Shown here: positions 4,211-64,000 of the stretch, piece by piece | Layout of the letters: each line of letters begins with the position of its first letter | How positions within the stretch are numbered: the first letter of the stretch is position 1 | Source of the DNA: a virus | Taxonomy: Duplodnaviria > Heunggongvirae > Uroviricota > Caudoviricetes | Virus record (IMG/VR): IMGVR_UViG_3300013383_000021 | Location: 27,767 to 91,766 of that record | DNA length: 64,000 bases | Direction: 5' to 3' (one strand) | The notes under the pieces: model-generated | Databases searched by the model: none | The model's input: only the letters and a program-made list of their open reading frames with translations | Told to the model about the DNA's origin: nothing | Position numbers and translations under genes: made by a program

Positions 4211-5236
4211 ATGCCACGTAAGACAAAGTATAACAATATCACTAGCCCTGCGCTTTTAGAGCAGGTTAACCCGGAAAACAAAAGATTAAAGAATGACTTC
4301 CTTACTTATCTAAAGTCAGTACAAAGAAGTAATGGAACAATTGATGGGTACTCCCACGACCTCGACATCTTCTTTGTATGGAACTTACAGAATAACAATA
4401 ACAAGTTCTTCGTTGACTTATCAAAGCGCGATTTGATCTCGTATCAGAACTGGCTTATCTACGAGAACGAAAACTCCCCCGCGAGAGTCCGGCGTCTAAA
4501 GGCCGCCCTCTCTTCCCTATCCAATTACGTGGAGAATATTCTGGATGATGAGTACGAAGGGTATCGCCCTATTGTAAGAAAGATCGAGTCTCCAATTAAC
4601 CAGCCAGTTAGAGAGAAGACTGTGTTCTCCGATGAACAATTGCAGTCGTTGCTAGACGTCCTAGTAAAAGAAGAAAAGTTTACCCAGGCGTGTGCGCTAT
4701 CACTTGCTATGTGCAGTGGCAGAAGAAAGTCAGAGCTGTTACGTTTCAAGGTAGATTGGTTTACAAGAGACAATATTATCTACGGGTCGCTGTATAAGAC
4801 TCCGGAGAAAGTAAAGACAAAAGGTGCTGGCAACGGTAAGTATCTTTACTGCTACACCCTTTCAAAAGAGTTTGATCCTTATCTGAGTCTCTACATGGGC
4901 TGGAGAAAAGAAAATAACGTGGAGAGCGAATGGCTGTTTTACGACAAAGCCGATCCCACGAAACAAATGAATATTTCTACGCTGAACAGCTGGGCTGTTC
5001 GGTTTAGCAAAATATTGGGCGTGCCGTTCTATTGGCACGCCTTGCGTCATTTCTTCACCACGAAACTTGCGCGGCTTGGTTTGCCGGATAGTGTCGTGCA
5101 GACTGTTATCGGTTGGAGTTCTGCCGATATGGTGCGGCTATATGACGATACTCCCGATGACGAACAGCTGGAAAAGTATTTTGGTGAAGATGGAATTAAA
5201 ACAGATGTTAAGGCGGCTGGGTTAGCCGACCTGTAA
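4211..5236 (+). CDS. tyrosine recombinase (XerC/D-phage integrase family), second recombinase in window
   Basis: N-terminal SAM-like core-binding region. Catalytic motifs GRRKSELL (Arg I), WHALRHFF (HxxR) and VRLY (Tyr). RBS gaggtgg. Confidence 0.75.
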   Translation: MPRKTKYNNITSPALLEQVNPENKRLKNDFLTYLKSVQRSNGTIDGYSHDLDIFFVWNLQNNNNKFFVDLSKRDLISYQNWLIYENENSPARVRRLKAALSSLSNYVENILDDEYEGYRPIVRKIESPINQPVREKTVFSDEQLQSLLDVLVKEEKFTQACALSLAMCSGRRKSELLRFKVDWFTRDNIIYGSLYKTPEKVKTKGAGNGKYLYCYTLSKEFDPYLSLYMGWRKENNVESEWLFYDKADPTKQMNISTLNSWAVRFSKILGVPFYWHALRHFFTTKLARLGLPDSVVQTVIGWSSADMVRLYDDTPDDEQLEKYFGEDGIKTDVKAAGLADL

Positions 5237-27744: not shown

Positions 27745-30700
27745 TGGCTATTCGTATTCAGTTTGATGGGACTGGCTCGCCGGAATGCCCTACTTTAGTG
27801 CTAGCTAAACGAGGCGGCGAAAAGCTCGGTGTTTTAAACACAGTTGATAATATCAGCGTGTCAGATAGACTGAGTGACGCCTGCGAATTATCTTTCGACG
27901 TACATAAAGAGTTCGACGGTAAGGTCTGTCCTATATGGAATAAGATTGTTGACTTCAAATTGGTCTGGTGTAAAGAGTGGGACAAATGGTTCTCTATCTC
28001 TGTTAACACACAGGAATCTTCTAGGGTTATGAAGAGTGTGACCGCGACTAGTTTGGGAGAGGCCGAGTTGTCTCAGATTCTACTACACGACATTGAGATT
28101 AACACGGAAGACGACATCAACAGAGATGACTATGATGAGGACTTCCCTACTATTCTCTATCGTCCAGACAAGCCAGAGGCTTCCCTTCTCCATCGTCTGA
28201 TGGAGAAAGCGCCGCACTATTCTGTCGGTCATATGGACTCGACTATAGCAAAGCTTCAGCGCACTTTTTCTTTTGATGGCGATTCTATCAAGGACGCCTT
28301 TGACGCTATTGCAGAAGAGATTGGGTGTCTGTTTGTTTATCCTTCTAGGTCTACTGATAAAGGAACTCCATCTCGCACAGTGGAGGTGTATGACCTGGAA
28401 CGCACCTGTCTGGATTGTGGCTATAGAGGTGAATTTGACGGTAACTGCCCTGAGTGTAAGAGTTCTAATATTAACGAGGGCTACGGCCAAGACACAACAA
28501 TCTTTGTTTCCACGGAAAATCTTACCGATGAAGTATCTTACGAAACAGATACCGACTCTGTGAAAAATTGTTTTCGGCTAACTGCTGGTGACGATTTAAT
28601 GACGGCGACTGTCCGCCTATGTAACCCAAGTGGCGGCGGATATATCTGGTGTATCACGGATGACACCAAAGAGGACATGTCGGACGAGCTAGTAGCGAAA
28701 TTAAACAGTTATGACGAGCTGTGTCAGCATTACAACGAAGAGGCTGGCAGTTCTATTGACGCTACCATCCTAGCTTCCTACAACGAGCTTGTAGACAAGT
28801 ATAAGTCGATGAACGAAGACCTAGAGAAGATCACCTCTCCTATAGCAGGATACTCTAACCTGGTCAAAGCTTACTTTAGTGCGATAGAGTTTGGCAGCTA
28901 CTTGCAGACATCTATGATGCCAACCTATGAGCATCAGGAGACAAACGCTGCGTCGCAAGCTGCTCTGCTGACAGCGGATAACCTCTCCCCTATCGCGGTA
29001 TCTAAGCTGACTTCTGGGACATCAAAGGCTACAGTCGAAAGCGCACTAAAGGCAATGGTAAAAGTGTTTATCGACACAAGTAGATTTAAGTTTACTATTA
29101 ACACAATCTCGTGGGTAAACACGGAAGGCAAAACACCAACATGGACAGGCAACTTTACCGTTACTAGCTACACCGAGGAAGACGACGAGGCGACCTCGGC
29201 CACTATTTCCATTGTCGTGACAGATAACTACGCTGACTACGCGAAGCAGTTAGTGGAAAAGAAAATCGCTATCTCAGATACAGAGGATGTTAGTATCACC
29301 GGTTTGTTTAAGCTAGAGCTAGAGCAATTCACAAACAACCTAAAGAAGTACAGCATGGACTGTCTGAACGAGTTCGAGGATTGCTGCCAAGACGTCTTGA
29401 ATATCTTGACTGAGTCCGGCGGCGGCGAAACAACTTCGATTATGTACGACCAGTATTACCTACCGTACTATAATAAGCTACTTGCAATACAGGCAGAGAA
29501 GGATGTTCGCAGCTCAGAACTCAGGATTATATTGGGCGACGAGGAAACCGAAACAGATTCAGGCGAACCGGTGCTTGGAGTAAAGCAGTATATCGAAAGA
29601 GCGCAGGAAGAAATCCGGAGTGCTCTCGATTTAGAAACATACCTAGGTCATGATTTGTGGGTTGAGTTTTCTTCTTATCGCAGAGAAGATGAGTACTCTA
29701 ACGACAATTTCATCTCTGACGGGCTAACTGATTCAGAGCTTGTTGACCAAGCACTTCAGTTTATTGATAAAGCTAAGAAAGAAATCTATAAGTCCGCGAA
29801 CCTGCAGCACACTATCACGGCGACGTTGAAGAACCTTCTAATCATTCCGGCGTTTGCACCGATAGTTGATTATTTCTCTGTGGGCAATTGGATACGAGTA
29901 AGGGTTGACGACGCGGTATATAGGCTACGGCTTGTTAGCTACGACATCGACTACTCCGATATGGATAATCTATCTGTTGAGTTTTCCGATGTCACTAAGA
30001 CGCTTAGTGGTACGGCTGACGTGGCGGACATTTTATCTCGCGCGTCTTCCATGGCGTCCACTTTTGATTATGTAACAAAGCAAGCAGTTAAGGGTTCCGA
30101 TGCGTCTGGCGTTCTTTCTAACTGGACGGAGAATGGCTTAGCTGCAACGCATACAAAGATTATAGATAGCGCAGATAATCAGAACATGGTTGTTGACCAG
30201 CACGGGACTCTTTACAGAAAGTTCGACCCGATGACTGAGAAGTACGAAGACATTCAGATGAAGATTATCAACTCCACCATTGCTATCACGGACGACAACT
30301 GGAAGTCTACTCGCGCGGCTCTTGGCCGCTTCTTCTATGTTAATCCGAAGACCGGAGAGTATACAGAGGGGTATGGTATCAACGGCGAAGTTCTTTGCGG
30401 TAAGCTATTGCTAGGCGAGTCCCTAGGGATCTATAACTCTGACAATAGTATGCGGTTTGACGCTGATGGTTTGACAGTTACAAACGGCACGAACACGGTT
30501 ACTATTGATCCCAAGGGAGATTCGGTGCTGTCAATAGTTAGCGAAAATGGAACTGTGATTTCGTTTAATAAGGACGGCACGGCAAACTTTACTGGCAACG
30601 TTAACGCCACCTCCCTATCCACCGGCGGCAAGGATTCTATAACTTCTACAAAAAATGGCACTTATATTGCAGCAGATGGATCTATTTATGTTGGAGGAGA

Positions 30701-39039: not shown

Positions 39040-39525
39040 TCAGTACTCAACTAAATCCGTGACTTCGCAGTTAAGCACTCCAGCCAGTTTCCCTAACTGC
39101 TCAATACTCTTAGGAGACCTCCTTCGGGCCTCCCAGTCCGCGATCGTGCGTACCGGGACACCGGATGCCTTAGCCAGCTCTGCACGAGACAAACCGTGCT
39201 CCTTACGCTTCCTCTCTATCTTAGTCCCAATCCCTCGCACAGTGCGGTAATACGCGAGCTGCCAGGTGCCTTGCTGCTCTAAGTTCAGATGTGTCCGAAA
39301 ATCCTTTTTCATATGCTCCGGTGTGAGCGAATCAACTCTTTCTGCGATCAAATCAGTGATGTCGTCATCACTTTTATGAAGCTGGTGCAATTTTTGCACA
39401 GCGAAAGTGAAACCCCGAAGCGGCCAACACATTGCGTTATACCGATCCGTTTCGTTCCATCCTACTCTCTGTTCGATGAGAGCATAGGCTTCCGCAAGTC
39501 CCTGAATCTGTTCTGTTGTAAGCAT
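39040..39525 (-). CDS. transcriptional regulator with C-terminal XRE-family HTH
   Basis: GLSRAELAKASGVPVRTIADWEARRRSPKSIEQLGKLAGVLNCEVTDL at the C-terminus. The N-terminal approx. 100 aa are unknown. Confidence 0.65.
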   Translation of the reverse strand: MLTTEQIQGLAEAYALIEQRVGWNETDRYNAMCWPLRGFTFAVQKLHQLHKSDDDITDLIAERVDSLTPEHMKKDFRTHLNLEQQGTWQLAYYRTVRGIGTKIERKRKEHGLSRAELAKASGVPVRTIADWEARRRSPKSIEQLGKLAGVLNCEVTDLVEY

Positions 39526-40030: not shown

Positions 40031-41116
40031 TTAGCTACATTTGAAAAATTTTTCTATGCCGCTTACAGCGTTTTCTTTTGTGTTCTTAGAAATATGAGTA
40101 TAATGTAGGGACATTTTCATATTGCTATGCCCCGCAAGTTCTTGTATAGTTTTGATGTCAACTCCACTTTCTGCAAGCATTGTAATATATGTATGCCTGC
40201 AGCTGTGCGGAGTTAAAACGCGGACTCCGGGAACCAGCTTTAAGGTAGCCATAAATGTTCTTCGAAAATAACTTTGGCTTACGATTTTGGTTGGGTCTTT
40301 CCCAGGCCATATGAATTCTTTATTCCCAGAGTTTCTAAGTTTCATAACATACTTCTGAACCTCTTTTGGGACCGGCACGTCCCTAACGCCGCGCTCACTT
40401 TTTGTGCATCCGATGATCACTGAGCCTTTAACAGATTTGACAGCTTGCCTAACGTGTATTACACTGCCGTCTTTTTCTATGTGTTCTGGGGTCAGTGCTA
40501 GTATCTCTTGAGATCTCAGCCCTGTTGCTATCATAACCCTGATCGCAACTCCCATCTTGTTTATTGGCAGATTCGACATCAGAAGCTTTATTTCTTCTGG
40601 AGAAAAAACTTCTTTTTCTTTTGTCGTGTTAGTGTTCTTTATCTTCTTGGCAAGTCTAACAGGGTTTTTACTAATCAAGTCGTTGCTTTCTGCACTCATC
40701 ATAATTTGATAAAGCATCCCTCGTAGTTTAGACGTGTATGATTTTGATCTGCCAGCCCTCGCCGCCGCTTTTAAAAACTCCTCGATGTGCATCGCTTTAA
40801 TTTCGTCGAGTCTTGTGTTCCCAAAATAATCAACTAGTATATTTAATGTGTACTTATACCCTTCATATGTTGTTGCGGAAACCTCCCCTTCATAGTCCCT
40901 GTACCATTGTAACGCCCATACTGCAAAATTAGGAGGAAGGCCGTTAAGCCCAACTGATATATTCCTTTGTACCGTGTGTGCCTTTGCTTCGACCCCACTT
41001 TTTGTGCTGCCATAGAAATATCGGTAAAGGGGCTTGTTGTTATCATCTCTGCCAATTTCTATACGGCATTCCCATCTTCCATCCTTACTCTTCTTTACAT
41101 AATAAGATCCTTCCAA
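40031..41116 (-). CDS. int: phage tyrosine integrase with N-terminal AP2-like arm-binding domain
   Basis: YYVKKSKDGRWECRIEIG arm domain. Catalytic R...HxxR...Y (HSCRHTYITMLAESG...LAGHSNMKMSLHYTH). Adjacent to the tRNA-derived att core. Confidence 0.85.
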   Translation of the reverse strand: MEGSYYVKKSKDGRWECRIEIGRDDNNKPLYRYFYGSTKSGVEAKAHTVQRNISVGLNGLPPNFAVWALQWYRDYEGEVSATTYEGYKYTLNILVDYFGNTRLDEIKAMHIEEFLKAAARAGRSKSYTSKLRGMLYQIMMSAESNDLISKNPVRLAKKIKNTNTTKEKEVFSPEEIKLLMSNLPINKMGVAIRVMIATGLRSQEILALTPEHIEKDGSVIHVRQAVKSVKGSVIIGCTKSERGVRDVPVPKEVQKYVMKLRNSGNKEFIWPGKDPTKIVSQSYFRRTFMATLKLVPGVRVLTPHSCRHTYITMLAESGVDIKTIQELAGHSNMKMSLHYTHISKNTKENAVSGIEKFFKCS

Positions 41117-50738: not shown

Positions 50739-51903
50739 CAAATTTGTTATCATAAAAGTTTATTATCTTTTACCTCCGGAGCTTTCGCCCTTTTACCCAC
50801 CATCATTTGGTGGCGGTTCAGCATACGTATTCATCTTCGGCTTCACCCGTTAAGATGCGGACACTCTTGGCGGTATTATATTCTCTATACGAGGGTCAAC
50901 CGCTATGCGTTACGATACCATAGGATTTTTATTTCCTTTGGTTATCTCGGCGCTACCATATTTGTACGCTTCTGCGTACACTAAATCACAAAGACGCTTT
51001 TTTCTTTCCATATACACATGTGCGTCATCATACATATAATCTATTAGCTTTAACATGCTACTGTTTTTTCTATATGCTATCGACCACAGGTTATCTTTTT
51101 CTCTATAAAGGTTCACCTTTTCAACCTCGGCATTAGCGAATAGGAACTCGACCAAGTCTTCTAGAAATTGTTTGTTCCCTTTGCAAAAACGAACCGCTTT
51201 CGTGTGGGACTTTCTTCCATGTGCCGCTCTTGAGTAATACGACACAGAACCGTCCCCGTCCAGTACCCCTCTGATAAAATGTCTGTAGAACTGTTTCGGG
51301 ATATTTTTGGGGAACGCAACAGAAAGAGATCTGTCCGGTGCGATACCATACTGCTTTAAATCAGTCACCATCTTACTCGACAGTATGCTTAACGAACAAC
51401 AGCCCCGCCCATCTCCTGTCACTCTTTTGTTCGAATTAAGCTCTTCTTTTAGCTTCTCTAGTAAGTAGGCGTCTGATTTTTGGAGCGTCAGCGAGACTAG
51501 TGGTTGTCTGCCTTTTGTGCTATGAATACAGCCGTCTGTTATGATCAGCCCTAAAAAGTACGCTTTACATTCTGTGTTAATCGTCTCGAAATAATCCTCT
51601 ATTAAATCAGGCGAAAACAAACGCACTTTTGAGTATCTCTTAACGCGGTATTCATTCAGCACCTTTATTACGGATGGTATACTAATATTGAACGTCTCCA
51701 CAAGATGCTCAAGAGTCATTGGTCTGCTCTTGTAGTATCTAACCAGCGCTTCTTTCACTTCCTTTGTTATATGCTTTGGTATATCTCTCACCTTCTTTCT
51801 GCGACATACAGCGATGATATAAAATGATTTGTGATTTATTAGGCTCCGCCGATATTGCCCTTTATTGTTTCAGTATATTTCTATAAAGCCAGCCACTTAT
51901 CTT
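50739..51903 (-). mobile_element. group I intron 1 of nrdD carrying a LAGLIDADG homing endonuclease
   Basis: Proposed junction ...SRSGNQ(L)|PFTSLNYG. 5' splice site after tt. The intron ends in G. Stop codons lie on both sides of the endonuclease ORF, so this is not an intein. Confidence 0.6.
50910..51791 (-). CDS. double-motif LAGLIDADG homing endonuclease (intron-encoded)
   Basis: AYFLGLIITDGCI and FIRGVLDGDGSV. Confidence 0.85.
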   Translation of the reverse strand: MRDIPKHITKEVKEALVRYYKSRPMTLEHLVETFNISIPSVIKVLNEYRVKRYSKVRLFSPDLIEDYFETINTECKAYFLGLIITDGCIHSTKGRQPLVSLTLQKSDAYLLEKLKEELNSNKRVTGDGRGCCSLSILSSKMVTDLKQYGIAPDRSLSVAFPKNIPKQFYRHFIRGVLDGDGSVSYYSRAAHGRKSHTKAVRFCKGNKQFLEDLVEFLFANAEVEKVNLYREKDNLWSIAYRKNSSMLKLIDYMYDDAHVYMERKKRLCDLVYAEAYKYGSAEITKGNKNPMVS

Positions 51904-57142: not shown

Positions 57143-59968
57143 TCAGCCTCCTCCCTGTATCATGCCATACACTTCCGACTCAGCATCCAATGGAGCACAT
57201 GGAACGCGGGTAGTGTAAATCTTGTCATCCCATTTATATCTGCGGTCGTACTCTTCATAGTTCGTGAAGAACCTCCGGCACGCCTCGTCGTAGTACAACC
57301 CAAGTTCAAAGCCAGCTCTCCCTCGCATACGATCCTTTGTTACGGACACAACACAGGAATACTGCGAGAACTTTGACGTTCCTTGCTCTTTCTCGTCCTG
57401 CCGTACTCTCCGTAGAGACAATGTACGGTGCGCGAGATTTGGGAGGTTCGACGTGCCGCCGATGTCATACAACGCGACCGCCCCCGGCGTTGTCCCGCTG
57501 GGAATCTTTCTCGGATGTGCAACCAGAATCACACACACATTGAATTTTGACGCGAACTGAATCAGCCAGTTGACCAGCTCGGTCTGCTTGTCATACTTGT
57601 TCTCGTCAGAAGAATGCAAGTCTATGGTCATTAGGTTGTCCAACAGGAACAACTTGCTGCCATACTTTCTGGCTGACGCTTCCATAGATTCTTGGATCGA
57701 CTCGATGTCGTTCGGCCACTCGTTCTTATACACGAACCACTGGCCTCTGTAACACTCATTGATTTTCTCTTTCGCTTCTCTCGAAGCAACCCAATAGATT
57801 GCGCCGTTCTTGCCGGTATGTTCTTCGACGTTTCTCGGCCCGGCAAGTAAGTAGTTCATCCACGCCTTACTCATGAAGTCCGGCAACTCTCTTGAAAAGA
57901 TCCAAGCACCTCTGTTTTGCTCAAGCGCATTACAGATAAGCTGGTACAAGAAGCTGGTCTTACCGGAACCCGGCGTGCCAGTCACGAGCGTTAACGTCCC
58001 GAAGAACAGCTTGAATAATTCTCTATCAAGACTTTCAATGCCAAAGTAAATCCCATCCAAGTCACTAATGTTAACATCCTCGACGTCGCTAAGATCCATT
58101 ACACTGTCAATCGGAGATTCTTTCGCGCTAAGGATTGCGTTCATCACTGCCTCTTTCCCCTGGTAATAAAGCAGCTCGTTCAAATCTTTAATATGCTTGC
58201 CAGTCGCTTCATCTACCGGAGGGATATCTACGACCTTTGTTCTCCAAGAACCAAGTCTAGGGCATACATCTTTCGCCATTTGATAGCCCGCCTTATCATT
58301 GTCAGAGCAGATGATAATCTCGGAAAACTGGTCTAGCCAATCCATATTCTCTTCAATCCAGTGGTGATTCTGAGAGCCTAAAGGAACGCTCACCGCATTC
58401 GTGTAGCCGGACTCAATAGCAGCCATCGCATCGCAATTACCCGTAACAAAAATCGTCCCGTACTGCCTTACTAAGATCATTCCGCTTGGCACTGTCACAC
58501 AATAAACGGTACCAACGTAGTGTTCTGTTTCATATGTAATGTCGTTTAGGTCTGCTTTTTTCTTACCTGTAATCGATACTCGATAGATCCCATCCAGCGT
58601 AGATAGCCGGTACCTAACAGAGCATTGCTGCCCGCTTGTGTGAGCAATCGTCTGTATTACATTAGCGTTGCTCAACTTACAGGCATAACCCGCAGTCCAC
58701 TTCTGAAACCGCCGAAGAATTATGAGCTTTTGTACCTCAGACGTGGTGCTAACCCACGAATAAGAGATTGGTTCTATATGAACGTGTGGCGGAATCCTGA
58801 ACAATATTCTGGAACCATAGTCAGAGAGTGGTATCTCGGTGTGATCAACAGACAATTTCTTGAGAAGCCGTCGCAGTCTGCGCCGTTTTCTTTTCTCTGT
58901 TGTCAAGAACCTGTACTCGCTATTGTTTTTGTCGTAACTGCAATTCTCCGATATGGCAATTGATAACTCAATCTCGTCTCTAGAGAGAGAAAACCCATTA
59001 CCTGAATGACTTGTTGTGATTGGAGCCGATTTATACCAGCCATCCGTCAGCTTTCCCGGCTTCGTCTTTTCCAAAAAACCGAGAGCGTTATAAGTTACAA
59101 CATTGTGGCCTCCAGTTACACACGACACATAGTTGTCTGTAGCAATAAAGGAGAGAAAACCTTCGTAGTGCTCGTTAATAATTGCGGTTGGTCTTACAAA
59201 TTTGCCGTGCAGCTTCGACCAAGTACCAGCAAAGAGGTCGTCCGCCCACACCGAATACACGTCCTGCCCGTGATACTCATCAAACCGAACCCACCCGTCA
59301 GGCGTTAGAATTTCTGCGTCGCCAGGAAAGCATTCGCCTTCAGTTATCAATAACGGCTGACTTATGTTTACCCTGTTCATATTGAAAAGGAGCGGACGAG
59401 TGTCCGCTCCTTTCTGACACCAGTTCTTAACCTCACCTTTTGACTTGTCGATTTTTCTAGCCGGTCGGTACTTCACCATCGTCAACACGTCGTTCGTATC
59501 GTAGTAGTTGAACACGGCGTTACCATGTTCGTCTTCCCGTACATCACAATGATCTAGTGTTTTCTCACTAATCTTTCTCGTAGCCATATACTGGTTTACG
59601 ATTGACCGGTCTCTTAACGGGGTCTGCTGGGGATACCGATAACCCCTGTGAGTCTTGATGCCTTTCTCGCCAAAGCTATAAGCCATCCCAGCTTCTTCAA
59701 AAGTTTTCTCCGCTGCTTCAAGATATGTATTACCAGACATCACATAGGCGTCAATGATATCAATGTTGCAGCCGCACCCAAAGCAGTGGAAGCTATAGGC
59801 TTTCGGGTTGTAAATAAAGCTCGGAGTGTCTTCCTGATGTACCGGGCACAATGATTTCAAGTTAGACGGATCAAACAATTTAAGGTTAAGCGTTTCAGCA
59901 ATCAAGAATGGAGTCCTATCTCCGATTTTCTCTTTCGCCTTCTGTAATTTCTCCTTTTCAATCAGCAC
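57143..59968 (-). CDS. primase-helicase (DnaG-type zinc finger plus TOPRIM, and DnaB-like helicase) containing an intein
   Basis: Zinc finger CPVHQ...HCFGCGC. TOPRIM LLITEGE[intein]CDAMAAIESG. Walker A GTPGSGKTS. Walker B LFLLDN. Confidence 0.8.
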   Translation of the reverse strand: MLIEKEKLQKAKEKIGDRTPFLIAETLNLKLFDPSNLKSLCPVHQEDTPSFIYNPKAYSFHCFGCGCNIDIIDAYVMSGNTYLEAAEKTFEEAGMAYSFGEKGIKTHRGYRYPQQTPLRDRSIVNQYMATRKISEKTLDHCDVREDEHGNAVFNYYDTNDVLTMVKYRPARKIDKSKGEVKNWCQKGADTRPLLFNMNRVNISQPLLITEGECFPGDAEILTPDGWVRFDEYHGQDVYSVWADDLFAGTWSKLHGKFVRPTAIINEHYEGFLSFIATDNYVSCVTGGHNVVTYNALGFLEKTKPGKLTDGWYKSAPITTSHSGNGFSLSRDEIELSIAISENCSYDKNNSEYRFLTTEKRKRRRLRRLLKKLSVDHTEIPLSDYGSRILFRIPPHVHIEPISYSWVSTTSEVQKLIILRRFQKWTAGYACKLSNANVIQTIAHTSGQQCSVRYRLSTLDGIYRVSITGKKKADLNDITYETEHYVGTVYCVTVPSGMILVRQYGTIFVTGNCDAMAAIESGYTNAVSVPLGSQNHHWIEENMDWLDQFSEIIICSDNDKAGYQMAKDVCPRLGSWRTKVVDIPPVDEATGKHIKDLNELLYYQGKEAVMNAILSAKESPIDSVMDLSDVEDVNISDLDGIYFGIESLDRELFKLFFGTLTLVTGTPGSGKTSFLYQLICNALEQNRGAWIFSRELPDFMSKAWMNYLLAGPRNVEEHTGKNGAIYWVASREAKEKINECYRGQWFVYKNEWPNDIESIQESMEASARKYGSKLFLLDNLMTIDLHSSDENKYDKQTELVNWLIQFASKFNVCVILVAHPRKIPSGTTPGAVALYDIGGTSNLPNLAHRTLSLRRVRQDEKEQGTSKFSQYSCVVSVTKDRMRGRAGFELGLYYDEACRRFFTNYEEYDRRYKWDDKIYTTRVPCAPLDAESEVYGMIQGGG
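58436..59332 (-). mobile_element. intein (approx. 299 aa) inserted in the primase TOPRIM E-G-x-x-D motif
   Basis: Block A CFPGDAEILTPDGW. Block B-like ...TGGHNVV. Blocks F/G VYCVTVPSGMILVRQYGTIFVTGN followed by +1 Cys. Removal restores ITEGECDAMAAIE. Confidence 0.7.
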
Positions 59969-61761: not shown

Positions 61762-62472
61762 TTATTCCTCCGTATGTAGTTTATTTAAATCTCTCAGCAG
61801 AGCAGTCGCTCTTGCTTTCTTTGTAATCTGTTTGTAGTCTCCGGTGGGAACCAGCTTGCCCTTTTCATCACGCTTATCCACGTGCTTCGTGACCAGCTCT
61901 CTAATCTTTTCTCTCTTACTAGGATCTTTCGCCACAATATCATTGGCGACCGCGTCGATTTCTTCGATAATAGAAGCGAGTTCGTTCTTGGATTTCTCTT
62001 CTTTCTGCTTCGAGCGGATGAAGTCCGGGTCGTCGGTCGTAGTAGCACACTGGAAGTATTTCAGCAGGAAGTATCTGTTGCTATAGGTAAGAGCCGAGCC
62101 AAACGCTTGACTGCTATCTGCCTGATTGCCGGTCATTGTCCAAGGGACAACGATCTTTTCTTCCGGATTGTCGTTGTTGACCCAGGTATAAACCATGTCA
62201 GCAGAGACCAGAAATTCATTCACTTTTTCTGTCTTGCCGCCCTTCGTTTTCTCGTAGCTAAAAGGCCGCACATCAGCTGTACCGTGGACAATCCCAGGAA
62301 CCAGCGTCAGGCCGTACTCCGCGACAGCACTGTTAATTTTAGGCAACAGCTCTACGTCAGAAGTATAGCTATACCCATATCCCTTCTTATCTTTCTTGAC
62401 AACATCTACAGCTTTCTGTACTGCCGCAAGCTTCTGATAGATGTTCAACGTTGCATGATTTTCTTTTTCCAT
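61762..62472 (-). CDS. Erf-family single-strand annealing protein
   Basis: IYQKLAAVQKAV...KGYGYSYTSDVELLPKI and LTYSNRYFLLKYF align with P22 Erf FYARLAEIQEHL...GKYKYRSCEDILEGVKPLL and SSYARKYCLNGLF. Confidence 0.6.
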   Translation of the reverse strand: MEKENHATLNIYQKLAAVQKAVDVVKKDKKGYGYSYTSDVELLPKINSAVAEYGLTLVPGIVHGTADVRPFSYEKTKGGKTEKVNEFLVSADMVYTWVNNDNPEEKIVVPWTMTGNQADSSQAFGSALTYSNRYFLLKYFQCATTTDDPDFIRSKQKEEKSKNELASIIEEIDAVANDIVAKDPSKREKIRELVTKHVDKRDEKGKLVPTGDYKQITKKARATALLRDLNKLHTEE

Positions 62473-62586
62473 ATTTCACCTCATCTCATTTTTTCGCGCT
62501 AGCTGTGTTGTAAAATAACCTTATATTTTTTAACCGCTCAGCGTGATTATATTATATAGCTTTATTTTTCAAATGTCTACCCCTTT

Positions 62587-62613
62587 TCGCGAAACTCGTC
62601 TGACGAGTTTCGC
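62587..62613. promoter_or_regulatory. perfect 13-bp inverted repeat (operator-like palindrome)
   Basis: cgcgaaactcgtc-t-gacgagtttcgcg. No U-tract on either side. Confidence 0.4.
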
Positions 62614-62633
62614 GGAGGAGCAGCCAGTTAAAA

Positions 62634-63047
62634 TCACAGTCCTTGAATCCTTTTTGACTCTTTCCACACATCCAGCAGTTCCTCTTCGGAGAGAAGGGCG
62701 ATAGCCGAGGAAGACAGGACGTTCCCAATAGCTACGCTCTTAATGTCCTCCTCTTTCAGAGAGCCGAGATATTTCAGCAGCCTCGCCTTCGACATCCTCT
62801 GCGGGTTCTCGCACAGGACAAGGCTGTCCGCCAGCAGGTTGTATTTCTCTGCCGGGAGGAGCACGTGTGTGGGTTGAGTCAGATTCTTAATTCTGGTTGT
62901 GAGTGGCAGCGCTATGACGTTCGGGCTTCTATCATTCCCGACATCATTTTGGAAGATGACTCCTGGTCTAATTCCCTTCTGTTCACTGCCTACCCCGCTA
63001 AAACTCATTAGGTATATGTCGCCTAGTCGTGGATTATCGTATTCCAT
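62634..63047 (-). CDS. MazF/PemK (EndoA-like) endoribonuclease toxin
   Basis: GDIYLMSFSGVGSEQKGIRPGVIFQNDVGNDRSPNVIALPLTTRIK...THVLL resembles B. subtilis EndoA [36 protein letters not shown]...PTHV. RBS gaaggagg before ATG 63047. Confidence 0.7.
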   Translation of the reverse strand: MEYDNPRLGDIYLMSFSGVGSEQKGIRPGVIFQNDVGNDRSPNVIALPLTTRIKNLTQPTHVLLPAEKYNLLADSLVLCENPQRMSKARLLKYLGSLKEEDIKSVAIGNVLSSSAIALLSEEELLDVWKESKRIQGL

Positions 63048-63110
63048 AAAACCTCCTTCTACCCGACAGTTAGACTTCACTAACACACGGGTAGAAAAGG
63101 AGGCGTTCAA

Positions 63111-63287
63111 TTATTACTTTTCTTCCGTGTTCTTAGGCGAAGCGTCAGGCTTTTCCTTAAATCTATCTGTTACTTGTCTCCATGTGCAGGCAACCCACGC
63201 CTGCCAGTCAGGGCACTGACGGGTACATTTCCAGTCTCTATCGCACAATCTACAAGGACTAGTATCCAAAATATTCTCCGGCATTAT
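63111..63287 (-). CDS. small Cys-rich protein (59 aa, 6 Cys), translationally coupled upstream of the MazF-like gene
   Basis: MPENILDTSPCRLCDRDWKCTRQCPDWQAWVACTW... Start overlaps the upstream stop (TAATG). Ends 1 codon before the mazF-like region. Confidence 0.35.
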
Positions 63288-63556
63288 TCCACTACCTCCA
63301 GCCTTTTCAGTCCAAGAGTTTTAATAACAACGTACACTGCAGACGGCGTCACCTTGATCTTTCTTGCAATATCGCTGGCACTCATTCCATCCAGATACAA
63401 AGACGCTACCTCGTCGATATCAATCTTAATACGGCCATCTCTCACTTTATTCTTTCGCTTTCTATGTACCTGCTCATTCGGGCGATTCTGCGCTACCCAC
63501 TGGCCGTAACTCAATCCAGCTTCCTTGGCCGCAGCCGCCACTTCATTAACCGTCAT
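63284..63556 (-). CDS. small HTH DNA-binding protein (sigma-70 region-4-like)
   Basis: ASLYLDGMSASDIARKIKVTPSAVYVVIK. Confidence 0.5.
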   Translation of the reverse strand: MTVNEVAAAAKEAGLSYGQWVAQNRPNEQVHRKRKNKVRDGRIKIDIDEVASLYLDGMSASDIARKIKVTPSAVYVVIKTLGLKRLEVVE

Positions 63557-63587
63557 TCGATTACAGTTCGTAATAGTTATTTCCTCC

Positions 63588-64000
63588 TTATTTCGTTATG
63601 TAATTATTTAAAAATCCTTCTTCCGAAAGAATCGGGATCCCCATGCTAATAGCTTTCTTGACCTTCGAGCTTCCGCTCTGCGGGTCATTGCAAACCAAAC
63701 AAGTCGTGTCTTTCGTCACGCTTGACGACACGTTCCAGCCAGCATCCTTCACGACTTTCTCAAACTCTCTTCTTGACTTGAACGCCTCCAGCTTACCTGT
63801 CACGCAGACTGTCATCCCCGTGCTTTTCTTACTTTCTCTAATAGTGATAGCTAAATAGTAATTCAGCACCGCAATCTCTGCAGAATGTTTTTTGATATAG
63901 GCGTTGATTCCTTCACTGGTCTTCACACCAATTCCACTAAGACCGCTCCAATCCGTCTCAGCATTCGCCATATCACATAGCGCCTCGATAAACGAACGTC
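63588..64000 (-). CDS. ligA: NAD-dependent DNA ligase, C-terminal HhH/BRCT portion (gene continues beyond the window edge)
   Basis: BRCT TVCVTGKLEAF.SRREFEKVVKDAGWNVSSSVTKDTTCLVCND...GSSKVKKAISMGIPILSEEGFL. The frame is open through position 64000. Confidence 0.6.
   Translation of the reverse strand, partial: RSFIEALCDMANAETDWSGLSGIGVKTSEGINAYIKKHSAEIAVLNYYLAITIRESKKSTGMTVCVTGKLEAFKSRREFEKVVKDAGWNVSSSVTKDTTCLVCNDPQSGSSKVKKAISMGIPILSEEGFLNNYITK

Follow-up and report, generated by a model that had tools for sequence, protein, structure and literature searches.

Results

A mazF-type gene behind two small genes

The 64,000-nucleotide (nt) stretch analyzed here (the window; positions 27,767 to 91,766 of IMG/VR record IMGVR_UViG_3300013383_000021) comes from a temperate Caudoviricetes phage, and close to one end it carries a gene for a MazF/EndoA-type endoribonuclease. 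This gene (62634..63047, minus strand) encodes 137 amino acids (aa), with its ATG at 63047 and its stop at 62634-62636. An earlier note, made from the sequence letters, had described a phage-borne EndoA-like toxin inside a recombination operon, preceded by a helix-turn-helix (HTH) protein and a 59-aa mini-protein with six Cys. The three co-directional minus-strand open reading frames (ORFs) are indeed there, and the phage-borne character and recombination setting of the toxin gene hold; several details (size, Cys count, overlap and start site) had to be revised.

Read 5′ to 3′ on the minus strand, the order is the end of a DNA ligase gene, the HTH gene (63284..63556; 90 aa), the Cys-rich gene (63114..63284; 56 aa), a 66-nt spacer, mazF, a 160-nt gap, and then the genes for Erf, an SSB-like protein, and a PD-(D/E)XK exonuclease. 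The TAATG at 63282-63286, which had been taken to couple the Cys-rich gene to the toxin, is the overlap of the HTH stop with the Cys-rich start. Likewise, the stop one codon before the toxin applies to a mechanical reading of the ORF from TTG 63110, which would give 158 aa. We reject that start. Among relatives, the spacer between the Cys-rich and mazF genes is 69-78 nt, with differences that are not multiples of three, and this variation in length and frame indicates that the spacer is non-coding; in nearly all close relatives, gene callers predict the 137-aa product. The ATG at 63047, 66 nt past the Cys-rich stop, is preceded by GAAGGAGG. At the other end of the block, the HTH gene begins 31 nt past the ligase stop. 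A promoter scan detected no promoter of its own ahead of it, and there is a weak promoter-like site within its 3′ end.

The protein is a MazF with conserved catalytic residues

The MazF family assignment is solid. The protein matches Pfam PF02452 (PemK_toxin) over residues 9-106 with an expect value (E) of 2.4e-23 and 82.8 bits (cutoff, 23.1) and PHROG 1936, a "MazF-like growth inhibitor." The "EndoA-like" label given earlier is correct, since in a PDB sequence search the closest solved relatives were S. aureus MazF (E ~1e-19) and B. subtilis EndoA (E ~2e-16). Identity is ~40-44% to the former and 36-40% to the latter. The AlphaFold2 model (mean predicted local distance difference test score [pLDDT], 92.4; predicted template modeling score, 0.86) has the MazF/CcdB-type beta-barrel fold, and the top 26 Foldseek matches in the PDB were all MazF-type chains of S. 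aureus or Bacillus (target-normalized template modeling scores, 0.84-0.91; E ~1e-12).

In B. subtilis MazF, activity requires Arg25 and Thr48 (PMC7354611). They align with R27 and T50 here; across 57 homologues (46-94% identity), R27 is invariant and T50 is at least 90% conserved. By sequence, then, the ORF probably encodes a catalytically competent, sequence-specific endoribonuclease of the MazF/EndoA type.

The MazF enzymes of Bacillus and Staphylococcus cut at UACAU. On the phage sense strand this site occurs 71 times against ~67-72 expected, and counts of 3- to 7-mers on the transcribed strand revealed no strong strand-specific avoidance of any 5-mer; these counts are uninformative about the specificity of the enzyme. 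The PADLOC defense-system models matched none of the HTH, Cys-rich, and MazF proteins.

An extra C-terminal helix marks a phage subfamily

Beyond the C-terminal helix of canonical MazF, the protein continues for some 25 residues (residues ~113-137; 62637..62711, minus strand), predicted by AlphaFold2 to form a short helix (115-118) and a longer one (121-135). Block-mean pLDDT is 97 for residues 121-130 and 87 for residues 131-137. This extension, absent from canonical MazF, is kept across the homologues, where L124 and W128 each reach at least 90% conservation, and the window's MazF belongs to a phage-specific subfamily that is distinguished by this additional helix. We considered a fused MazE-like tail and rejected it: a profile of the extension searched against the PDB returned no MazE and no significant chain (E up to 10), and hhalign gave a probability of 0.2% against B. 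subtilis MazE.

In one subfamily locus (L037:5001-5450; the contig is binned to Bacteroides sp. CAG:927), a TAG interrupts the extension in frame (AFLS*EELLEAW), and another in-frame stop falls just upstream of the conserved N-terminal region. Either TAG is recoded in that phage, or the protein is naturally truncated and lacks the extension. An apparent intermediate of 75% identity, a "175-aa MazF" on an ENA contig (L095), proved to be an assembly artifact with repeated adaptor-like insertions (read in translation as MCIRDS or VYKRQ) and was discarded.

No MazE and no RNA antitoxin are found at the locus

As the earlier note had it, there is no canonical MazE: reannotation of the neighboring ORFs with Pfam, PHROG, and NCBIfam gave no MazE-, AbrB-, or ribbon-helix-helix-like match among those tested. 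An RNA antitoxin was also considered and rejected. No tandem RNA repeats of the type III (ToxIN-like) kind are present in 62300-64000, and no Rfam element was found at the locus. The locus thus differs from canonical mazEF on two counts, having no MazE-type gene and a putative partner, the Cys-rich protein, that does not co-occur with the toxin.

The Cys-rich protein was the part of the earlier description that changed most. It is 56 aa, not 59, and has five Cys rather than six, although it has, as described, no MazE features. C11, C14, C20, and C24 are invariant and form a CxxC-x5-C-x3-C knuckle, followed by a Trp-rich helix in which W30 and W35 are invariant; the C-terminal tail is variable. 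Within the core (residues 1-45), variable sites fall 1:1:13 by codon position, and the ORF is a genuine gene under purifying selection. AlphaFold2 modeled the protein poorly (pLDDT, 52; too low for a fold search) and placed a helix at residues 27-43. No match was found in Pfam, PHROG, or NCBIfam. As a MazE mimic the protein was rejected, at an hhalign probability of 0.09% against B. subtilis MazE.

In two more distant relatives, L023 (MazF 77% identical) and L024 (70%), the Cys-rich protein keeps the four Cys (CxxC-x4/5-C-x3-C) and the Trp-rich helix. A hidden Markov model search of 1.84 billion representatives added 16 further family members of 44-110 aa (P0124-P0139), with the motif SPCxxC...C...C..W..W[FV]...W and spacings SPCxxC-x4-8-C-x2-4-C; one of them, P0126, has two tandem copies of the motif. 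All five of the distant members that could be placed are on unrelated phage contigs, mostly in arrays of small genes, and none of the five has a MazF homologue beside it within flanks of a few hundred bases to 4 kb, which suggests that this family is a generic small phage protein. It appears to be previously undescribed. In the other direction, the Cys-rich gene stands beside mazF in only 5 of 56 non-identical subfamily loci. Such low co-occurrence both ways argues against a dedicated Cys-rich antitoxin and goes against the suggestion of a cognate zinc-ribbon antitoxin.

The HTH protein is as described in being an HTH protein, with matches to HTH_7 (E 1.2e-5; 25.8 bits, cutoff 23.8) and HTH_28 (E 3.2e-5). 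Its likeness to sigma region 4 was not borne out to the same degree (Sigma70_r4_2, E 0.014).

A hairpin buries the mazF ribosome-binding site

The spacer ahead of mazF folds into a strong hairpin (63047..63109, minus strand; inverted repeat I1) that pairs the Shine-Dalgarno (SD) sequence GGAGG at 63052-63056 with an upstream CCUCCUU. Its minimum free energy is −32.6 kcal/mol (z, −4.67), and none of 200 shuffled sequences folded as well. A palindrome spans 63057-63096 of the spacer. The CCUCCUU anti-SD tract begins ~10 nt past the Cys-rich stop. Pairing of the SD with the upstream pyrimidine tract is kept in the consensus fold of nine spacer variants from relatives, as well as in each of six variants folded singly. 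Only one pair is changed on both sides among the variants, which makes the covariation support weak. On the model, the hairpin would keep MazF synthesis below that of the two upstream proteins, and it could couple that synthesis to the upstream ORF, so that MazF would be made only when this ORF is translated.

Most relatives pair mazF with an MrpR/YopR-like repressor gene

The subfamily census comprised 56 loci with non-identical MazF, drawn from the window's lineage, IMG/VR loci, and contigs of metagenome-assembled genomes in GTDB. Downstream of mazF in 47 of the 56 is a gene for an MrpR/YopR-like protein of ~318 aa, at a median gap of 20 nt and overlapping in some. This protein matches Pfam MrpR_N_CB (E 6.7e-13), and its profile finds the SPbeta YopR/MrpR structures (E 4e-9 to 6e-8) ahead of the tyrosine recombinase XerA (E 1.5e-4). 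Of 55 loci, 47 have a promoter scoring at least 10/12 ahead of mazF, in nearly every case with an extended −10 TG. It lies 32-112 nt (nearly always 32-73 nt) upstream and typically reads TTGACA-17-TATACT, the TG immediately preceding the second hexamer. The MrpR-like gene follows mazF in 45 of these 47 promoter-bearing loci. The resulting two-gene operon of promoter, mazF, and mrpR-like gene was seen across relatives L008-L018 and L038-L082. An ORF of ~107 aa upstream of mazF in 32 of the 56 loci was considered as a partner and set aside; it has no relative in Pfam, PHROG, or the PDB, is unrelated to the Cys-rich protein, and has no homologue in the window.

The window, like the rest of its lineage, departs from this pattern. 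The two-gene operon, present in 45-47 of 55-56 relatives' loci, is missing, and the best promoter-like match upstream of mazF scores 8/12. No significant MrpR-like homologue was found in the window or in the 20-kb loci of its lineage, which together cover all but about 33 kb of this phage; the single tblastn match in the window is weak, with an E of 0.002 over 61 residues. The HTH gene is confined to the window's lineage and L023, and it occurs exactly where the MrpR-like gene is missing. We imagine that the HTH protein may stand in for the MrpR-like DNA-binding partner, as a non-orthologous replacement. L024 is intermediate, with the Cys-rich gene, a promoter, mazF, and a divergent MrpR-like gene, and with no HTH gene.

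Within the window's lineage, the HTH-Cys-MazF block itself is invariant in ten varied neighborhoods, and L023 has it as well, so that a putative DNA-binding regulator, a small and presumably non-DNA-binding protein, and the toxin move together. What varies is the gene upstream: ligase, a Band_7 protein, or a 260-aa insert. A Band_7/flotillin gene of 513-519 aa or a 260-aa ORF stands variably between the ligase and HTH genes (L085, L089, L090, and L027 versus L086-L088), and the ligase/HTH junction is an insertion hotspot just upstream of the block.

The phage genome and other features

The window's phage genome is ~107 kb, and four IMG/VR contigs share the HTH-Cys-MazF-Erf order at ~92% protein identity. 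Structural genes occupy the plus strand to ~37 kb, and replication and nucleotide metabolism genes occupy the minus strand. That the phage is temperate is shown by a bona fide integrase (40031-41116; E 1.4e-21), together with an HTH protein of the XRE type (39040-39525) and another tyrosine recombinase (4211-5236). Most contigs with subfamily homologues are binned to Clostridia (Oscillospiraceae, Ruminococcus, Acutalibacteraceae, and other taxa), and some carrier contigs are 200-550 kb. The subfamily is carried by phages of ~100 kb, mostly in gut Clostridia bins, and at least the window's phage is temperate.

Of the NAD-dependent DNA ligase gene upstream of the block, the window contains the 3′ part, with a BRCT domain (63588..64000, minus strand; Pfam, E 2.3e-12); its frame is open up to the window edge and the gene continues beyond, and relatives encode a LigA of 650-674 aa at this position. 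In three relatives (L027-L029), genes for an RtcB RNA ligase, a Thg1-like enzyme, and NAD-dependent DNA ligase lie 3-10 kb upstream of mazF, a region that would be past the end of the window. RtcB joins 2′,3′-cyclic-phosphate and 5′-OH ends, the ends left by MazF, and such a phage may be capable of RNA repair as well as RNA cleavage.

A perfect 13-nt palindrome (inverted repeat I2; 62588..62614; 100% complementary) comes just past the mazF stop. L023 has another palindrome in its place, which points to a conserved RNA hairpin or a coevolving operator. AAAAGGGG stands between the palindrome and a promoter-like site of the Erf operon, TAGACA-17-TATAAT (62551..62579, minus strand; 11/12), which lies ahead of the erf gene and is kept in relatives. 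Erf itself, a single-strand annealing protein (61762..62472, minus strand; Pfam ERF, E 5.3e-17; PHROG 155), is encoded by the first gene of the recombination module downstream of mazF.

Across the whole window, several palindromic hexamers are nearly absent from the sense strand (CGGCCG, ATTAAT, GCCGGC, and GAGCTC, 0 each; GTCGAC, 1; ATCGAT, 2; 10-14 expected), which suggests avoidance of restriction sites. A 941-aa primase-helicase (57143-59968, minus strand) contains what by eye is an intein-like stretch (from …GECFPGDAEILTPDGW… to …IFVTGNCDA…); no intein domain is among the Pfam matches recorded for its relatives. A LAGLIDADG homing-endonuclease ORF (50910-51791, minus strand) lies among putative ribonucleotide reductase genes, again as judged by eye, and the region around it seems to be split by mobile elements.

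Discussion

The reading we favor, tentatively and at somewhat less than an even chance, is that this MazF is a phage-controlled regulatory RNase that works without a canonical antitoxin, is translationally throttled in the window's lineage, and is tied to the lysis-lysogeny decision or to early regulation. In most of the subfamily, mazF would be the first cistron of a two-gene operon read from an extended −10 promoter, with the MrpR/YopR-like gene next. In the window's lineage this wiring would have been replaced, with mazF becoming the last cistron of the HTH/Cys-rich/MazF block directly behind ligase and the hairpin sequestering its ribosome-binding site; the RNase would then be produced only in small, gated amounts compared with the two proteins encoded upstream. 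We imagine that RNA cleavage shapes the balance between lysogenic and lytic growth and the takeover of the host, by analogy with what host MazF does for the SPbeta and phi3T phages.

The analogy comes from recent work on those phages. MrpR/YopR is the recombinase-fold, non-recombining master repressor of SPbeta; its gene is the last of the yopMNOPQR operon, which also contains the gene for a binder of host MazE, YopM (PMC10516654, PMC10769878). In phi3T, AimX and YosL bind and inhibit host MazF, the activity of which favors lysogeny (PMC10769878). Set beside this circuit, the order of promoter, mazF, and mrpR-like gene in the majority of relatives looks like that of a phage that has internalized the RNase arm, with a phage-encoded MazF coupled to the master repressor. 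That lone PemK/MazF genes are common among phages also speaks for the favored reading.

Several points weigh against this reading. The MrpR link is missing in the window's own lineage, so its relevance there is by homology only. The gene lies in an early replication and recombination string, away from the integrase/XRE module at 39-41 kb. Because UACAU is not depleted, an unrestrained enzyme of that specificity would cut the phage's own mRNAs, and an inhibitor or tight timing would be needed. A throttled toxin cistron behind two small genes resembles the control of stoichiometry in toxin-antitoxin systems, and the block does not vary while its neighborhood does. Finally, both the RNase activity and the effect on the phage life cycle rest on computation; we infer these, as we do the regulatory role and the identity of any neutralizer.

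Some neutralizer, or else strict timing, is likely. The invariant block and the buried SD fit a toxin-antitoxin-like stoichiometric control, and a neutralizer, if it is a protein, would be a non-MazE partner, for which the Cys-rich protein is the best local candidate, although not one that would serve family-wide. This brings up a tripartite addiction or abortive infection module, which the earlier note had raised and which we regard as rather unlikely though a serious contender: the HTH protein as regulator, the Cys-rich protein as a probably Zn-binding antitoxin of a new type, MazF as toxin, and a hairpin that couples translation and keeps antitoxin in excess. The shared strand, the gene order, and the TAATG overlap of the HTH and Cys-rich genes all suit such a module, and a ribosome terminating at the Cys-rich stop, with the anti-SD tract ~10 nt on, could open the hairpin. 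The block persists through ten varied neighborhoods and in L023, the Cys-rich and mazF genes stay adjacent in L024, which has no HTH gene, and the HTH gene appears just where the MrpR-like gene is missing, as a possible replacement for it. Small phage inhibitors of EndoA-type MazF do exist, in AimX (51 aa) and YosL (PMC10769878). The co-occurrence data tell against it, however, with the Cys-rich gene at 5 of 56 subfamily loci and mazF at none of the five distant Cys-rich loci within flanks of a few hundred bases to 4 kb, and in L024 a promoter separates the two genes. The Cys-rich protein has no similarity to MazE and no PADLOC match, its variable C-terminal tail does not resemble a conserved toxin-binding one, and no promoter of the block's own was detected in front of the HTH gene, which starts 31 nt past the ligase stop. 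The more ambitious claim, that gut Clostridia phages carry their own MazF as a lysis-lysogeny effector held by non-MazE partners (MrpR/YopR-type in most, and in the window's lineage a 56-aa Zn-knuckle antitoxin with an HTH regulator), seems to us unlikely as a whole.

It is also conceivable, although quite unlikely, that the protein is a solitary weapon or housekeeping RNase with no protein inhibitor, used in early host shutoff or turnover of early transcripts in the manner of T4 RegB, and that the HTH and Cys-rich genes are unrelated early genes. Lone PemK/MazF proteins of normal length in Enterocloster phages, Psychrobacillus phage Perkons, and others, together with the many phage PemK-like proteins in BFVD, count in its favor, as do the generic nature of the Cys-rich family and the position within the early region. 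The phage is temperate, however, and a simple shutoff nuclease would not be expected to show the tight linkage to an MrpR-like repressor that is conserved in most relatives. The elaborate sequestration of the SD suggests a product that must stay scarce, and phage transcripts avoid neither UACAU nor, in a strongly strand-specific way, any other 5-mer. Restraint could instead be built in, with the C-terminal helix plugging the RNA/MazE-binding groove by fold-back or dimer swap until a trigger such as proteolysis or the binding of a partner frees it. Throughout the family the extension is conserved, its Leu and Trp nearly invariant, and the model packs it as a helix at high confidence; by eye it shares with the helix by which MazE of B. 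subtilis and S. aureus binds MazF an ungapped pattern of hydrophobic (−4), aromatic (0), small/hydrophobic (+3), L/I (+6), and N (+7) residues; AimX uses positions M14, Y18, E20, and M21 (PMC10769878). We nonetheless think this very unlikely. The resemblance has no statistical support (no PDB MazE at E up to 10; hhalign, 0.2%), the pattern would suit any amphipathic helix, and a monomer model cannot show a dimer groove. Least credible of all, and hardly to be expected, is a non-catalytic decoy that binds host MazE and frees host MazF, as SPbeta YopM does, or poisons host MazF dimers, for anti-defense or in favor of lysogeny. SPbeta-like phages do manipulate host MazEF through binding proteins (PMC10769878, PMC10516654), and 40-44% identity to Firmicute MazF makes cross-binding of host MazE conceivable, but the invariant catalytic Arg, the at least 90% conserved Thr, and the many invariant or nearly invariant core positions across 57 homologues speak for selection for enzymatic activity.

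MazF is among the best-studied bacterial toxins, and its role in phages has become clear only recently, through Bacillus arbitrium phages that manipulate host MazEF. This locus and some 50 relatives suggest that abundant gut phages encode the RNase themselves, usually in an operon with a master repressor of the SPbeta type and never with MazE. If the regulatory RNase reading is right, this would be a second independent system linking MazF activity to the control of lysogeny, with a MazF subfamily that has a new regulatory appendage and possibly a new Cys-rich type of antitoxin. For annotation there is a caution as well: being small and lying just upstream of a toxin gene does not by itself make an ORF the antitoxin.

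How does the locus compare with known systems? With EndoA/EndoAI (MazF/MazE) of B. subtilis and MazEF of S. aureus, the window's MazF has in common the toxin fold and the catalytic Arg and Thr. Unlike them, it has no mazE gene, has a C-terminal extension, and is phage encoded in an early gene string; the usual partner of the phage subfamily is a downstream MrpR-like repressor rather than an upstream antitoxin. The SPbeta/phi3T network likewise ties a MazF-type RNase to a master repressor of tyrosine recombinase fold and to small phage proteins. There the MazF is the host's and here it is the phage's own, the window's lineage lacks the MrpR-like gene, and no arbitrium genes were seen. The Cys-rich protein, compared with MazE rather than with AimX or YosL, which mimic the helix of MazE, has no similarity to it.

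Three-gene toxin-antitoxin operons, such as omega-epsilon-zeta and paaR-paaA-parE, have the order regulator, small protein without a DNA-binding domain, and toxin. The order of the HTH-Cys-MazF block is the same, although it has no detected promoter of its own and its Cys-rich family is not linked to toxins elsewhere. T4 RegB is a phage-encoded, sequence-specific mRNA endonuclease of toxin-like fold that acts early in infection and has no antitoxin. It differs from the window's MazF in its RelE/YoeB-like fold, in belonging to a virulent phage, and in having no linkage to a repressor.

Also comparable are PHROG 1936 and the solitary PemK proteins of Enterocloster phage PMBT24/CB457P1, Psychrobacillus phage Perkons, and Lactobacillus phage LpeD, which have no annotated antitoxin and are 37-46% identical to the window's MazF over the core. 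Those that we looked at are ~118-120 aa, have no C-terminal extension, and are at other genome positions (in PMBT24, among tail genes). Phage-borne PemK/MazF genes have been cataloged before (PHROG 1936; PMC6507118), and a study of their partners was not found in the literature. Against this background, what is new is the C-terminal extension, the relatives' operon with an MrpR-like gene, and the way in which HTH gene, Cys-rich gene, and hairpin are arranged in the window's lineage.

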